Of a stretch of DNA of 64,000 nucleotides, positions 1 to 60,277 are shown in pieces. Within the stretch, counting starts at the first letter, position 1. The number at the start of each line of letters is the position of its first letter. Source of the DNA: Octopus vulgaris (Eukaryota); NCBI GenBank assembly GCA_951406725.2, contig OX597831.1:7564001-7628000 (forward strand). The letters run 5' to 3'. Below the pieces are notes generated by a model. The model was not told the DNA's origin. It worked only from the letters and a program-made list of their open reading frames with translations, and ran no database searches. A program made the translations under genes and the position numbers.

Positions 1-1625
1 GGGTTAAGGTTTCAAAAGCCAGTCATAGTCCCATAAGAGCTGTGTGGGGGCAGCTTCTTTTCAGGTAGCAACTATGCTGGGTATCTTTCGGCAAGTCCTT
101 TTCTTCTAGAAACATTATCTGTTTCCTTCTGACAATTCATTCCATAACTTTACTGAAATGAGAAGACAGATAGAGATGGACCTGCAGTTTTTAGCTTCTG
201 CTCTGTTCCTACCTTTATGGATAGGGAATATAATTTGTTTTAGCTTTTGAGGAAGTTTACCATTTGTAAGCGAACTCTGGAAAAGTATCTGAAGTAGTTT
301 TGCTAAAGCCTACTTATACAACTTCAAGCAAACAACTAAGAAACCCTTGGAACCACTTGCTGAGTTTAAGCTCTTTTCATCTTTGGCTATTGTTGGTTAC
401 ATCTGCCTTTTCATCTTTGTCTATTGTTGGTTACATCTGCCTTTTAATCTTTGGCTATTGTTACTTACATCTGCCTCTTCAATGTCAATGCAACTGATGC
501 TTGCTGCCTTCTTTTGTAGAACAATAATATCAAAGAACTCAGCCAGATTATTTGCATTGGGGAAGTGAAGACACTTTTGAATTGTTCACTGAGCACTTCA
601 CTTACCGTTTTGTGGTCCACAGTCAGTGAACCATTCCCTTGGAACAATGCTCTTATTTTGTAGGGAACTGTGGCAGTTTCCTTTGCAAATTTATAGAAAG
701 ATTTAGGGTTTGTTTTTACACTTTCCACAGCTCTGTTCTCTCTTTTTCACCTGAGAATTTGATTCTAATTTCAATTTCCATCAGTGTCTGTCTTATTTTT
801 GACTTTTCACCATTCTTCAGGCTTTAGTTCTGTGTCTTCAAAGGATTTTCCTATCTCTGGGGATTTTATTTTTGGGCCAAGCTGGCCTTTTTCCCTGGGG
901 CATATTTAGTGCATATAGCTTACATCATTAATATAAACTTCAAGTCGTCGTCTTGCATAGAAGACAGACTGCCACACCAATTTCATTTGTAGATCTCTTT
1001 GCTGATAGATTTCCATTCTGCTTTATGAAAATTCAAGTTGCATACAACTTTGGTCCTTCTAATAGAATCGATGCCAGTAGCTTGCCTTGGACCATACATT
1101 GTTAGCTTTACACTGTTGTGGTCTGAGAGTGCTGTCGGTGTCACCTTCCCATTATGGATAAGATCCATGTTATTTGTGAAGCAGAGATCCAAGATGTCAT
1201 TACCCCTGGTTGGCTGGAGTATCCCTCGTTCCATGAACAGCATATTACAAAGTTCTAGTAGTGATTCTATTTGCCTTTGTTCATGCAGTGACAACCCAAA
1301 GAGGATTCGGTCTTCAGGCCATTTCCCATTTGTGGGGTTGAAGTCACCCAGGAAGAGTATATTGATCAATCCCTCTTCCATGCATCTGAGGTTGTCTTTC
1401 AGTTGACCATCATGTTTCAAAGCATTTGGTGGATGATACCATGTGTACATCACCACTTCGAGTTACTTTAAGTACACTATGAATGTGTCACAAACCAAGT
1501 TCAATGGTGTGACATCTCCACAGATGTACAACACAATCCACCAAGCTCTTTCCCTTGTCTTTGGAAAACAGAACACATTGGGATGTGCATCTCTGCATAA
1601 TTTACATCTGCAGACCAAAGTGTTT
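1..1625 (-). mobile_element. Decayed CR1/Jockey-like LINE (APE endonuclease to start of RT)
   Basis: ORF 983..1456 has LGDFN, PTRGNDILDL and LSDH APE motifs. ORF 465..728 has KTNPKSFYKF. Bases 1-330 give frameshifted RT-like PIHKG..R..AKNCRSIS and KVME.IV. Confidence 0.85.
373..474. repeat. 34-bp tandem repeat x3 inside the LINE remnant
   Basis: cttttcatctttggctattgttggttacatctgc occurs three times with few substitutions. Confidence 0.9.
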
Positions 1626-23064: not shown

Positions 23065-23227
23065 TTTATTTTGAAAAATAATACTGTAAGCTCTTGTTTG
23101 TTTGTGTGTTTGTAAACACACACACACACACACACACACATCACACAAAAGACAAAAAATGTGATAGAAATCACCATCATGTCGATATCTAAAAATATCC
23201 AATAAATCATTAACAGGTGGATTTATT
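23065..23227 (-). promoter_or_regulatory. Candidate AATAAA polyadenylation signals for the COR-Death-TIR gene
   Basis: tttatt on the + strand at 23222-23227 and 23065-23070, about 60 and 215 nt after the stop. The hexamer is common in AT-rich DNA. Confidence 0.35.
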
Positions 23228-23283
23228 AGTGTGATATATAACAGGTGGATTAGAGACATTCAAACATAATTCTTAATACATTA

Positions 23284-23639
23284 TTATAATACATTACATA
23301 GACCACATCTCCAACGAGATGTCGCCCTGGCCACATTAGTTCTGGACAGAGTCCTTGCATGGTTGCTGTTATGCGTGGTCAATTGTTCGTTCATTTCTTG
23401 GTGAGGATTCAATGAACCTACATGATGTTCCTCATGTGTTGTTTCTAAAGATGGAGCGACTTCGTTAACTTCATTACTAGTTTGATTGGGTTTTACAGAA
23501 CTGGGAACAAATGATTTGGATTCTGTTGTACTTTTGCTATTCTCATCGTTAATAAAATAATGTGAAATTCGGTGGATAATCTCCTTGTATTTATCCGCCA
23601 AGTCAGCAGTCATACCTGAGCTTCCGTGTCCCCCAATAC
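23284..23639 (-). CDS. Terminal coding exon: GIGGHGSSGMTADLADKYKEIIHRISHYF…low-complexity…SRWRCGLCNVL* (CaaX)
   Basis: Acceptor cgttttgcag, phase 1, 356 nt to tandem TAA TAA. In frame with ORF 23284..23613. Confidence 0.85.
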
Positions 23640-24004: not shown

Positions 24005-24499
24005 GGGAAGACCAGGCAGGACAAGTGAGATCATAACCCGTGGCCTCTACCTGGGAAGTAGCCAGTCCACTTATGCATACCTTTCCTTCTTGTGACACAA
24101 ACCCTACTTGTGAAGACCTGTTGAGGCAAGTGAGAATCAAAATCGAAATCGATCAACATCAATGGAAATTGTAGCTGTAATACCAGTGCCGGTGGCACGT
24201 AAGAGAACCATCCGAACATGGCCGTTGCCAGCGCCACCCCGACTGGCCTCTGTGCCATTGGCACATAAAAAGCACCATCCGATCGTGGCCATTTGCCAGC
24301 CTCACCTGGCACCTGTGCAGGTGGCACATAAAAAGCACCCACTACACTCACGGAGTGGTTGGTGTTAGGAAGGGCATCCAGTTGTAGAAACACTGCCAGA
24401 TCAGACTGGGCCTGGTGCAGCCATCTGGTTCACTAGTCCTCAGTCAAATCGTCCAACCCATGCTAGCATGGAAAACGGACGTTAAACAATGATGATGAT
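24005..24499 (+). mobile_element. RTE 3'-end copy with full hairpin-repeat UTR
   Basis: Homologous to 5930-6398. Confidence 0.85.
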
Positions 24500-25300
24500 A
24501 TTTTAGAACTTGTTTATTTGTATTGACATTGTTTTTTTCTTTAATTTCTCCTCATCTCCTGGTCATCATGAAAACTATTGGCTCTCATCACAATGAGAAT
24601 TATCTGGATTGCTAAAATTACTGGTATCCTGGCTAAATTTGTTTCTTACTGGCAAAACATAGAAGCACTCAATTAAATATAGGAGACAAGTCATAGCTAC
24701 CAAAAGCAACATGTAAGGAAATTTATCTAATTCGATCCGATATGGTGGATCACATTCTCTGTGAAATGAAGAAACATAAATATCATTGTTTACAGGCAAC
24801 ACAAGTAGTATTTCGTGAAGACAACTGTCTGTGAATCATACTTTATGGAAATAGGCTGTGGATAGGCAAATTAACTGCAGTGTTCATCCAGAGATAACAT
24901 CACTTATGGACAGACAGAGTTTAAAAACAAATATTTTAATCTAATACTGCTCTTGTTACACATAACAAACTTTTATTTGGCTGAGTGGCTAAATGCAACA
25001 TCAGTAATTCTTTAATCCCTGTTTTCTTATATCAGTGATGTCAGATTTTGTCTTAGGTTGCGGTCAACAGTTGGTACATTCTACTAACCAAATCCAAAAC
25101 AGGCAGGAATGCACATTTACCATTCTCACTGCCACTGCTGGGCATGTTTTGTCTACTACTGATATAGATTTGCTTTTATGAAGAACATGTCCGTAAAAGA
25201 TATCATATCCTAACAAATGCTGCAGTTAATTTGCCTTTCAACTATGTACATGCATTAAGATATACAGACAGCTAAATATCATTCTCTTTCATTGGTTTCT

Positions 25301-25670
25301 CATCATCATCATTGTTTAACATCCGCTTTCCATGCTAGCATGGGTTGGATGAATGTGAGGGCTGGTGAACCAGATGGCTGCACCAGGCTTCAATCTTGAT
25401 CTGGCAGAGTTTCTACAGCTGGATGCCCTTCATAACGCCAACCACTCCGAGAGTGTAGTGGGTGCTTTTACGTGCCAGTCAGGCAGTACTGGCAACGACC
25501 TCGCTCAAATCTTTTACACATGCCACCGGCACAGGTGCCAGTAATTTCGATGCTGGTAACGATCACACTCGAATGGTGCCTTTTAAGTGCCACTGGCACG
25601 GAAGCCGGTTAGCCACACTTGTATGGTGCTCTTTGCACCCTGCTAGCACAGACACCATTCATCGAATTTG
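25301..25670 (-). mobile_element. RTE 3'-end copy
   Basis: (CAT)n tail followed by the reverse complement of the UTR. Confidence 0.85.
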
Positions 25671-25735
25671 ACTTGGGGTCACTAGACTTTGCCGCCACCA
25701 AATTATAAACCATATTAATTGTTTATTAAACTAAC

Positions 25736-25913
25736 CGTTCATGTCAATATATACAAGGTTGGAAAAGATGAGTGCCATGCCACCCGGTGGAGGCCAGACG
25801 ATACTTTCAAACATCACAGGGAGGATAGGTTTCCGCAGACCATCAGCTAAGCTCAGTTCACGGTTGCAGAGATGAGATATGACATACTTGGGTGTAACGC
25901 AGGCCAATATAAT
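25736..25913 (-). CDS. Exon 10, TIR C-half: IILACVTPKYVISHLCNRELSLADGLRKPILPVMFESIVWPPPGGMALIFSNLVYIDMN
   Basis: Acceptor tttcgttttag, donor ACG/gttagt, 178 nt, phase 0-1. Carries Y..S..C..E and KPILPV motifs. Absent from the ORF track. Confidence 0.95.
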
Positions 25914-26189
25914 CTAAAACGAAATGAGAGAAGAAAGTTATGACAGCCACTTAAAACACACACACACACACACATATATTTGATAACAGTTTCACCTGGC
26001 ACCAAGCAACTTAGAGGTTCACAGACTCATAAAACAAACCTGTTTTGTCAGACTTGCAGTGACTGAATGAGACAACCCCAAGGTGGCTTCTAGACAGTGG
26101 GCCACGATTGGTCAATGCAGGTCACATGGTGTTAATGATATGGCAGCAACATCAATCCAATTCTTTATTCCTAGGACCACATGCAAGAC

Positions 26190-36882: not shown

Positions 36883-37058
36883 CTTGCAATTCCGAATTCC
36901 TTGTTCGATCTTGCTGTAGAGCTGGTCACCACCACCCATCTGGCCAATGTCCATCCAACAAGAGATCCCAGCTCTTTCCAGCCTGTCCCACAGGGCCTTC
37001 ACTGCATCTTGACTGTCCCACTGGTAACTGATGAACACTTGTGGGCAGTGGGATTGTT
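36883..37058 (-). CDS. Exon 9, TIR N-half: EQSHCPQVFISYQWDSQDAVKALWDRLERAGISCWMDIGQMGGGDQLYSKIEQGIRNCK
   Basis: Acceptor tttttccag, donor AAG/gtgaga, 176 nt, phase 1-0. VFISY box 1 and G..CW.D motifs of TIR_2. Confidence 0.95.
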
Positions 37059-37568: not shown

Positions 37569-37742
37569 CTCTGCTCTGTTTCAGAAGATCTATGATGTCA
37601 TACCTGGACATTTTCTCCAAGAAGGTGTGCAATACATCCACAGACACCTGTGTGTTGCCGCTGCCAAGAATCCAGTCAGTGAGCAGAGCAAGTGATGGAT
37701 TTAAATCATTATTAAATTTATCGATTTTCGGTTTCTTATAAC
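37569..37742 (-). CDS. Exon 8, Death domain C-half: GYKKPKIDKFNNDLNPSLALLTDWILGSGNTQVSVDVLHTFLEKMSRYDIIDLLKQSR
   Basis: Acceptor aattcag, donor GAG/gtaagt, 174 nt, phase 1-1. Matches the P...LL..W......V..L...L..M.R.D...LL Death pattern. Confidence 0.9.
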
Positions 37743-39393: not shown

Positions 39394-39552
39394 CCAAATA
39401 ATTGGCCAAACAGACCCAGTCTAGGTTTTCCACTCCATTATTTAATAACTTGGCAGCACTTTTGATCCAATAAGGCAAATCTGCAATTTCTTTCTCAAAG
39501 TTGCCTTTTGTTGATTCTAATAAACTGTTGGAAAGGATTGTCTTCTTCAAGG
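39394..39552 (-). CDS. Exon 7, Death domain N-half: ALKKTILSNSLLESTKGNFEKEIADLPYWIKSAAKLLNNGVENLDWVCLANYL(G)
   Basis: AAG acceptor after a T-tract, donor TGG/gtaaga, 159 nt, phase 1-1. DW..LA..LG is the Death-domain helix motif. Confidence 0.85.
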
Positions 39553-40613: not shown

Positions 40614-40686
40614 CAACTGTGTGGTGGGGAGGGAACCATTTCTGAACGAATGTCGTCTTCATCCGGCGATGGCCACAACAAATGAC
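40614..40686 (-). CDS. Exon 6: VICCGHRRMKTTFVQKWFPPHHTV
   Basis: Acceptor ccttaaacag, donor TTG/gtgagt, 73 nt, phase 0-1. Confidence 0.85.
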
Positions 40687-49191: not shown

Positions 49192-49371
49192 CTTTTTGCT
49201 AAGGCATTCATCAAGATCAAGAAAATGAAGACAAATTTCAGCCGTACAACCACTGATATGATGAAAATCACATAACTGACCACATGGACAACTGACGCTG
49301 GTGCTGTAGGAGATACGCTTCATCCATACTTCCCGCAGTCGAAGAAGTGTTGTGTCCAAAAAATTACGGAC
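49192..49371 (-). CDS. Exon 5, end of COR plus Cys/His cluster: VRNFLDTTLLRLREVWMKRISYSTSVSCPCGQLCDFHHISGCTAEICLHFLDLDECLSKK
   Basis: Acceptor tttcaacag, donor AAG/gttagt, 180 nt, phase 0-0. Overlaps ORF 49099..49359. Confidence 0.9.
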
Positions 49372-51488: not shown

Positions 51489-51590
51489 CTTAGCAACTGC
51501 TTGGGGGCTCGTTACAAGAGGAGCTTTCTGTCCATTGTCGCTAATATAAACATCCTCTTCTCTGGCTTCGGCAACACGCATCACAACAAC
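51489..51590 (-). CDS. Exon 4: VVVMRVAEAREEDVYISDNGQKAPLVTSPQAVAK
   Basis: Acceptor ttgtttgcag, donor AAG/gtattc, 102 nt, phase 0-0, open frame. Confidence 0.8.
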
Positions 51591-55608: not shown

Positions 55609-55766
55609 CTTGATCTTTGCGTATGAACTTGGTAACATTTCTAATATAAAATCATGTTCAGAATCAAGAAAAAGTCGAGCTACTCGGTAGTAAAGATATG
55701 GCTCAGAGCCACCACATTCCTGAGACCAATGGATGGTGTGTGCTAATATGCGGTGAAATAATGCTT
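55609..55766 (-). CDS. Exon 3, COR-B: EALFHRILAHTIHWSQECGGSEPYLYYRVARLFLDSEHDFILEMLPSSYAKIK
   Basis: Acceptor tttttcag, donor AAG/gtaaca, 158 nt, phase 1-0. Completes the FLPEALFHRIL motif across the junction. Confidence 0.9.
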
Positions 55767-57522: not shown

Positions 57523-57652
57523 CTGGAAGGAATCCATGAAAATTTAAATAAAAGGTGACAACATCTGAATTTCCCGGATGAAGTTTCTTGTTATCTCTCG
57601 GTAGATGAAACATCGAAGGTACATAATAACTAGCTCCTTTGCTGTTATCCAC
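57523..57652 (-). CDS. Exon 2, COR: VDNSKGASYYVPSMFHLPRDNKKLHPGNSDVVTFYLNFHGFLP
   Basis: Acceptor ccaattag, donor CAG/gtaatt, 130 nt, phase 0-1. Carries YYVPSM and F.GFLP COR motifs. This frame is not in the ORF track. Confidence 0.9.
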
Positions 57653-60118: not shown

Positions 60119-60277
60119 CTTTGAAGGAATGCGTTTACAGATGAGATCAAACTTTTGCAACAACCCCAACAGGGCTGCCTTATGTTCAAGTTCATCATTC
60201 CATAAATAATTTATCAGTTGCTCATCCAGAAGCCCATATTTCTCCAGTTGCTGTCTCTTCTCAACATAAACACTGTC
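60119..60277 (-). CDS. Exon 1 in window, COR domain: DSVYVEKRQQLEKYGLLDEQLINYLWNDELEHKAALLGLLQKFDLICKRIPSK
   Basis: Acceptor ttcttacag, donor AAG/gtagga, 159 nt, phase 0-0. The G.L...L...LW......LL.L.KFDL pattern is typical of Roco COR domains. Confidence 0.9.

Follow-up and report, generated by a model that had tools for sequence, protein, structure and literature searches.

A predicted lipid anchor behind the Death-TIR module of an octopus NHR-ROC-COR protein and its invertebrate relatives

Introduction

Can a large TIR-domain protein be tethered to membranes by the kind of lipid signal that is found at the end of Ras proteins? The question is raised by a minus-strand reading frame in the window, i.e. 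the stretch of 64,000 nucleotides of Octopus vulgaris DNA analysed here. An earlier note on this DNA had proposed that the frame belongs to a Roco/TIR protein that carries a CaaX box of the geranylgeranyltransferase-I (GGTase-I) type, a second membrane signal and a flexible linker. TIR adaptors reach membranes by other routes as well: TRAM by myristoylation, TIRAP and fly MyD88 by PIP2 binding.

The literature searched, in which coverage of invertebrate TIR surveys is incomplete, yielded no natural CaaX-bearing TIR or Roco protein, and no paper was found that joins neuralized, PATS1 and TIR. The architecture as such is already in print, Neuralized-Roc-COR-Death-TIR_2 having been noted in Strigamia and Crassostrea (accessible part of PMC5094078). 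The accounts for Strigamia, Crassostrea and Aplysia describe architecture and, in their accessible parts, mention neither a CaaX box nor a function (PMC5094078, PMC9334734). The Strigamia protein and a Saccoglossus protein that carries the database name 'neuralized PATS1' have the same domain order as the octopus protein, fall into the orthologue set described below and end in CTICAVL and CTVCSIL, respectively. What appears to be new is the lipid-anchor signal on such a carrier, and its extension to a second family; the lipid chemistry is that of the textbook. The term ecTIR-DC covers conserved TIR families of invertebrates (accessible part of PMC6321704), to which the proteins described here plausibly belong.

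Gene architecture

The octopus TIR exon is 100% identical to protein P0001 of Octopus bimaculoides (1,264 aa), in which Pfam places Neuralized (residues 3-154), Roc, COR-A (555-715), Death (958-1026) and TIR_2 (1036-1146); bit scores are 42.5 for PF08477 and 65.6 for PF16095. ROC is followed directly by COR in P0001 according to Pfam, and the matching exons were mapped in the octopus genome. By tblastn, 20 coding segments extend over the window and ~47.5 kb past its right end, and TIR exon 1, searched against the genome, matched once. A 21st exon, encoding ROC, is absent from the database model P0001 and was found via other cephalopod-like orthologues. This exon, VFLSSRAVYIIVFNICDDLS, lies at ~81550-81657 on the extended scale, where the P0001 model has an intron read-through instead. 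The ROC-COR and TIR parts proposed earlier are present, but the N-terminal Neuralized domain (NHR) and the Death domain had been missed. Eleven exons of this NHR-ROC-COR-Death-TIR gene lie within the window. The last is treated in the next section; the others, and those further upstream, are as follows.

25736..25913, minus strand: TIR exon 2 with the invariant Glu (CNREL); tblastn, alignment
36883..37058, minus strand: TIR exon 1 (VFISYQW...WMDIGQMGGGD); genome search, Pfam, tblastn
37569..37742, minus strand: Death domain exon 2; Pfam, tblastn
39394..39552, minus strand: Death domain exon 1; Pfam, tblastn
40614..40686, minus strand: exon at the end of the COR region; tblastn
49192..49371, minus strand: COR-region exon with a Cys/His cluster (CPCGQLC...C...C); tblastn
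51489..51590, minus strand: COR-region exon; tblastn
55609..55766, minus strand: COR-region exon; tblastn
57523..57652, minus strand: COR-region exon; tblastn
60119..60277, minus strand: COR-A exon; tblastn
up to ~47.5 kb beyond the right end of the window, minus strand: ten further coding exons (NHR, ROC, start of COR)

The end of the COR region is rich in Cys and His. This stretch (CPCGQLC...HH...C...C.HFL; CCGHRR) spans 49192-49371 and 40614-40686 on the minus strand, is largely kept in the orthologues inspected for it and could possibly be a zinc site. Many introns hold high-copy short repeats, e.g. at 24020-24500 and 25300-25600, and at 424-1462 (minus strand) there are broken frames that resemble, by eye, a LINE endonuclease/reverse transcriptase.

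The last exon and its terminal motif

The minus-strand frame 23667-23284 has a translation that ends in ...ARATSRWRCGLCNVL, followed by two stops. The protein thus terminates in CGLCNVL, i.e. a CaaX box CNVL with an upstream Cys, then TAA TAA, and translation confirms what had been read from the letters. The range given earlier, 23284..23330, places the motif correctly, but the 15-mer quoted with it begins at 23331, one base outside.

23284..23639, minus strand: last coding exon, with the end of TIR (GHG loop, last helix), linker and CxxCaaL; splice sites and spliced contigs
23308..23555 (boundary approximate), minus strand: linker of ~85 aa, poorly conserved, predicted disordered; pLDDT ~50, no secondary structure
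23305..23307, minus strand: upstream Cys at -7, candidate S-acylation site; conserved Cys in orthologues
23284..23298, minus strand: CaaX box C-N-V-L and stop, predicted geranylgeranylation site; Cys codon 23298-23296, Cys invariant in a 45-row alignment
23286-23284 and 23283-23281, minus strand: stops TAA TAA
23222..23227, minus strand: weak candidate poly(A) signal AATAAA; transcript contigs end at 23155-23244

Is this exon used? The segment 23284-23639 (minus strand) is a real spliced last exon, because its splice sites are in phase and spliced contigs run through the stop. The acceptor TTTTGCAG|GT at 23639 is in phase with the donor AACG|GTTAG at 25736. In 4/4 transcript-type runs, from four studies, a single contig joins exon 25734-25915 to 23637 and continues past the stop; none of the runs is on record as RNA, and the transcript reading rests on these spliced joins and not on labels. 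A fifth run has the upstream exon as a loose end at the join of the 23284-23639 exon. Contigs drop rare variants, and minor alternative last exons could be missed. Splicing into the exon and through the stop had been named beforehand as a test of the gene end, which came out in its favour.

A single CaaX end is modest evidence, because 12 of 2141 stop-terminated frames of at least 20 aa in the window (0.56%) end in C-x-[VILM]-[LFIVM]; it is conservation that lifts the motif above chance. The second TAA is supplied by a 10-nt direct repeat, TAATGTATTA, at 23296-23287 and 23283-23274 (minus strand; 13-nt period), which spans the stop codon, and the doubled TAA therefore needs no special meaning. 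The motif is unchanged in 4/4 runs of close-relative reads, which at ~99% identity to the window are uninformative on selection. AlphaFold2, applied to the C-terminal 335 aa, gave a confident Death domain and TIR, followed by ~85 residues at pLDDT ~50, in agreement with the flexible linker of ~85 aa that had been proposed behind the Roco/TIR body.

Conservation of the CaaX end

Proteins were called orthologous if they have a Roc or COR domain, or at least 53% identity over Death-TIR. This gave 56 proteins among the matches listed, from molluscs, annelids, nemerteans, a flatworm, a rotifer, myriapods, echinoderms and hemichordates; additional searches gave further members from amphioxus, ticks, spiders and mites. 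Orthologues, and the sister proteins described below, come partly from a search with the best 120 of 156 matches. The TIRs of the NHR-ROC-COR-Death-TIR family form one group (100/97). No vertebrate, insect or nematode is among the named matches, which is weak evidence of loss.

Cys is found at -4 in 53 of the 56 orthologues listed, and since the rows are related these 53 are not 53 independent events. Of the three proteins without it, one is an alternative Mya model, whose sister model does have the motif, one a fused model from a flatworm and one a partial model from a rotifer. Position a1 of the 53 holds eight different residues (T15 V10 S8 A7 I6 N5 C1 L1), a2 is aliphatic or Met (I39 L7 V5 M2) and X is L52 F1. 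Over 45 pairs from 10 species, the last seven residues are as similar as the TIR domain (62% identity each); the linker has 21.8% identity, vs 20.5% after shuffling. Its length ranges from 54 to 128 aa across these 53 orthologues, the last Cys always lying exactly four residues from the end; that the motif stays at the very terminus although the linker before it cannot be aligned is a sign of selection. Retention of the terminal motif in orthologues in spite of linker divergence had likewise been set as a test, and it is what these figures describe.

Recognition by GGTase-I

The octopus motif has a non-polar a2 (V) and a hydrophobic X (L). Much of what can be said about its recognition comes from the accessible part of a yeast screen of all 8,000 CXXX sequences, where the canonical geranylgeranylation profile is Cx[V/I/L][L/F/I/M/V] (PMC11304957); the termini of the octopus family match this profile. 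The evidence for CNVL concerns yeast GGTase-I acting on reporter proteins, a stand-in for the octopus enzyme. In the Rho1-CXXX screen, CNVL belongs to the variants by which FTase-null yeast was rescued (list of Fig. S4a), and all 117 retested hits grew; the screen was permissive, in that its 112 unique clones held 94 distinct motifs and ~20% lacked a consensus X (PMC11304957). In the Ydj1 screen of the same paper, CNVL has an E-score of 0 at 37 C and 0.09 at 42 C, similar to Rho5 CVIL and Rsr1 CTIL, and at 37 C CSVL scores 0.01 and CNLL 0.18 (PMC11304957). Recovery of CNVL in the GGTase-I-dependent screen agrees with the assignment made earlier, that a CaaX box with X=Leu is a GGTase-I-type motif.

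A human protein offers a parallel. GBP2, which ends in CNIL, is prenylated in cells, mevalonate label being incorporated via the CaaX box; which compartment GBP1 or GBP2 went to was not determined by the prenyl signal alone, and GBP2 without CNIL looked like the wild type by microscopy (accessible part of PMC2998424). As to the enzyme, the octopus genome has separate beta genes for GGTase-I, FTase and RabGGTase, with a GGTase-I beta exon on C6 (E 3e-27 vs 2e-07 for the next class). FTase beta is one 447-codon intronless open frame (G000:C5:115892149-115893144), and the beta genes of GGTase-I and RabGGTase are split into exons; the FTase beta gene is possibly a retrocopy. Taken from the sequence, the CaaX Cys is very probably prenylated.

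The second membrane signal

CaaX proteins have two classical second signals, a palmitoyl Cys or a polybasic stretch. Which of these does the octopus family have? The upstream Cys is present in all 53 orthologues that have the CaaX Cys: 47 have it at -7, and six, which are oyster and pearl-oyster proteins, at -6, with C-x-C instead of C-x-x-C. More distant members have it at -5 (C-C) or 8-11 residues further up. With spacing this loose, S-acylation is a better fit than metal binding by a CxxC, and this Cys is likely to be S-acylated, as far as sequence can indicate.

Charge behaves otherwise. The octopus tail has three scattered Arg in the 15 residues before the CaaX box, but net charge over these 15 residues is zero or negative in 18/53 orthologues listed and at least +3 in only 4/53 (mean +1.1), and a polybasic second signal of the K-Ras4B type is rejected for the octopus family. 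The second signal had been described as Cys plus Arg residues: the Cys part is borne out across the family, whereas the Arg residues are an octopus detail.

The conservation reaches further than the two Cys. Residues -14 to -5 are conserved in most orthologues listed, with Val at -10 in 48/53 and an E-Q-V-H-like stretch conserved outside cephalopods; that part is lost in octopus. Such conservation exceeds the needs of a lipid anchor, and lipidation alone does not account for it.

Association of the predicted anchor with the Death-TIR module

Does the anchor belong to the GTPase or to the TIR end? A profile search with ROC-COR-Death-TIR gave 132 new proteins among the best 150 matches, 92 without a Death-TIR-type TIR and 40 with TIR. 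Cys at -4 is found in 0/92 of the TIR-less ROC-COR relatives, many of which are fragments or rough gene models, vs 29/40 of those with TIR. The idea that the CaaX box is a Roco feature is rejected on this count, and the predicted anchor is tied to the Death-TIR module and not to the GTPase. The proposal of an anchor on a Roco/TIR protein holds in that the signal is there, but its association is with Death-TIR and not with Roco.

A sister family of 64 long proteins (P0047-P0122) among the matches listed has a helical N-terminus, a coiled coil, Death, TIR and TIR. It includes the S. purpuratus 'MyD88-like protein L1' and amphioxus, mollusc, rotifer and flatworm proteins, and is multi-copy in amphioxus, crinoids, abalone and clams. 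Cys at -4 occurs in 56/64 of the proteins listed, typically as KKKSKTCSIL; these 56 have Lys at -8 in 37 cases, a net charge of at least +3 in 29 and an upstream Cys in only six. Glu is kept in both TIRs of most proteins listed. The two families share a Death-TIR module of ~40% identity, a long variable linker and the CaaX box. The sister family differs in having no NHR or ROC-COR, two TIRs, a Lys-rich second signal and TIRs of separate clades. That one paralogous family uses Cys and the other a polybasic signal is the strongest sequence argument for a membrane-binding purpose.

A complete family-type TIR was present in 38 of 116 new short matches, and 30 of these 38 have a CaaX end. That every TIR of the clade is prenylated is rejected: an Actinia protein and six amphioxus proteins have a closely related TIR and no CaaX. 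In P0311 (Actinia) and P0312 the TIR, ~60% identical to that of the octopus family, lies behind carbohydrate-binding-type domains (PF02018 in P0312), and there is no CaaX box. The sister family was not found among the 20 TIR_2 loci examined of 23 octopus-genome matches (best candidates scored). The octopus genome also has TIR-bearing open frames of ~690-710 codons, a cluster of seven at G000:C3:22.89-23.16 Mb and one on C29, which are probably intronless Toll-like receptors.

TIR domain: enzyme or adaptor

By sequence, the best PDB match of the TIR is the bacterial AbTir (E 2.5e-05), followed by two other bacterial TIRs, and those of the Death domain are p75NTR and NRADD; no MyD88 is among the 18 PDB sequence matches (E up to 1). 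The Pfam score is 84 bits for TIR_2 and only 18, below the cut-off, for TIR (PF01582). TIR_2 membership does not define the subtype, and Dictyostelium TirB and TirD are without NADase activity in vitro. The Glu of CNREL aligns with the Glu of AbTir NYELD, which we take to be the catalytic residue, on helix C. It is invariant in a 45-row alignment, whose rows were chosen with complete ends, and present in 53/53 orthologues listed. A conserved Glu does not prove NADase activity. In Foldseek, SARM1/TIR-1 rank first, with plant, Hydra and MyD88 TIRs close behind and MyD88 mid-list; SARM1 and these three differ at most 100-fold in E-value, and enzyme and scaffold are therefore not separated.

Enzymatic TIRs (AbTir, BtTir, SARM1/TIR-1, Dictyostelium TirC) resemble the octopus family in their TIR_2-type domain and in a Glu at the same place. 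They differ in that fold matches have 15-23% identity and that the octopus family lacks the SAM and ARM of SARM1. TirC is also membrane-targeted, but via an N-terminal helix, and the octopus family via a predicted lipid anchor. The protein has 1,264 aa, vs the short Death-TIR adaptor that is MyD88, and has no TLR-clade TIR. There is about an even chance that the TIR of the octopus family is enzymatic, i.e. would cleave NAD+.

ROC-COR part

The octopus ROC has G1 (GKDRVGKT) and G3 (WDFAG) intact, and these were found in 48/53 and 50/53 orthologues listed, respectively. G4 reads GTHRN in octopus (exon at ~72.8 kb, extended scale). The Asp of G4 is the guanine-specifying residue; it is present in only 14/49 scored orthologues, with Asn in 27, octopus included, and G, A, S, K, E or H in the others. 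With this Asp mostly replaced, it is not certain that the family has a GTP switch. Relative to other Roco proteins it may differ in nucleotide specificity or in switching, whether through relaxed specificity or as a pseudo-GTPase.

The family resembles Roco proteins (LRRK2, DAPK1, bacterial Roco) in having ROC and COR-A over Pfam cut-offs, with PDB matches 4wnr and 3dpu; the order ROC-COR-Death is that of DAPK1, and LRRK2 too associates with membranes. Unlike these, the octopus family has no kinase or LRR, and it has NHR in front, TIR and CaaX behind and a G4 Asp that is often replaced. NEURL4, an NHR protein, is reported to bind the ROC domain of LRRK2 (accessible part of PMC4565672). The fusion of NHR directly before ROC (N-terminus at ~111 kb, extended scale) parallels this binding.

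Proposed mechanism and alternatives

The best reading, with a probability of about 0.8, is that of a protein on a flexible membrane tether, which would have geranylgeranyl on the CaaX Cys, a probable S-acyl group on the upstream Cys and a TIR that is probably an enzyme. By the standard CaaX pathway, GGTase-I would add a C20 lipid to the last Cys, aaX would be cleaved and the Cys methylated. The upstream Cys would then be acylated, as a second signal of the H-Ras/N-Ras type, and the linker would act as a leash that holds the protein at the cytoplasmic face of the membrane. Less surely, the anchor might concentrate the Death-TIR end on membranes, self-association of ROC-COR and Death might cluster the TIRs and turn NAD+ cleavage on, and NHR might be the input or partner-binding end. 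H-Ras, N-Ras and K-Ras4A likewise pair the CaaX box with a Cys shortly before it that gives the second membrane signal; the octopus signal differs in being on a multidomain protein of ~1,250 aa, after a TIR and ~800 residues past the G domain. As 0/92 TIR-less Roco relatives have the CaaX box, the likeness to small GTPases is one of signal type, not of descent.

What else might the terminal sequence be? A chance motif or a wrong last exon has a negligible probability: although 0.56% of window frames end so and the stop sits in an AT-rich 10-nt repeat, this is refuted by the spliced transcripts and by conservation from molluscs to amphioxus and chelicerates. It is also very improbable that the end carries no lipid and instead serves as a PDZ ligand or, through C-x-x-C, as a zinc knuckle or redox pair. 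The CxxC spacing of 47/53 orthologues listed would suit zinc or redox chemistry, K-C-x-[VI]-C resembles the first knuckle of a RING finger, Neuralized proteins end in RING and Ser/Thr-x-hydrophobic ends are PDZ-like. A last Cys exactly four from the end at any linker length is at odds with all of these; the C-x-C of the six oyster and pearl-oyster proteins, the C-C or far-upstream Cys of distant members and a sister family that keeps CaaX without the first Cys speak against zinc or redox, and Ser/Thr at -3 in only 23/53 orthologues listed against PDZ.

The remaining alternatives accept the lipid and differ on what it serves. In one, which is possible and the less favoured, the lipid anchors the protein to the membrane, while the Death-TIR end has no enzymatic activity and acts as an adaptor like MyD88 or as an inhibitor of Toll signalling. 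Death precedes TIR as in MyD88, a sister-family protein is named MyD88-like L1, a ROCO-bearing MyD88-like protein occurs in Aplysia (accessible part of PMC9334734), and amphioxus bbtTIRC inhibits MyD88 signalling (PMC6043800). The bacterial TIRs and p75NTR/NRADD among the best PDB sequence matches, with no MyD88, the excess of TIR_2 over TIR (84 vs 18 bits) and the invariant Glu argue the other way. In another, which we regard as doubtful, the lipid of the prenylated tail is hidden in the protein or a chaperone and released on nucleotide binding or dimerisation of ROC-COR, as a switch and not a standing tether. The model would be GBP1, GBP2 and GBP5, which are large immune GTPases with a C-terminal CaaX box, prenylated in cells, whose membrane association requires prenylation and dimerisation (accessible part of PMC2998424); they differ in having a dynamin-type GTPase, no TIR, Death or NHR and no palmitoyl Cys, and homology, which was not expected, was not found. 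Nucleotide-dependent dimerisation has been discussed as a role of ROC-COR (PMC4104024), a linker of 54-128 aa could reach back to the protein body and the conserved strand at -14 to -5 might serve in docking. Such a switch sits poorly with a sister family that has CaaX without any GTPase and with the degenerate G4. A second acylated Cys, moreover, usually fixes proteins on membranes. The GBP-like switch is compatible with the prenylation part of the best reading, the tethered protein described above.

Significance

A bolder proposal, which we hold tentatively and consider improbable as it stands, is that these proteins represent an undescribed class of prenylated TIR enzymes in bilaterian invertebrates. 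An ancient Death-TIR-CaaX output module would have been combined with two sensors, NHR-ROC-COR or a helical repeat, and with two second signals. The Roco version would join nucleotide-switched lipid exposure to TIR clustering, as a GTPase-gated, NAD-cleaving signalosome on membranes, separate from SARM1 and from Toll/MyD88.

A recent atlas counts several of the TIR clades that are frequent in non-model molluscs, arthropods and cnidarians among the uncharacterised ones (bioRxiv 10.64898/2026.04.30.722052), and animal TIR enzymes besides SARM1 are almost unstudied. Two widespread invertebrate families gain testable properties: a cell location, by way of the predicted lipid anchor, and a candidate activity, Glu-dependent NAD+ cleavage.
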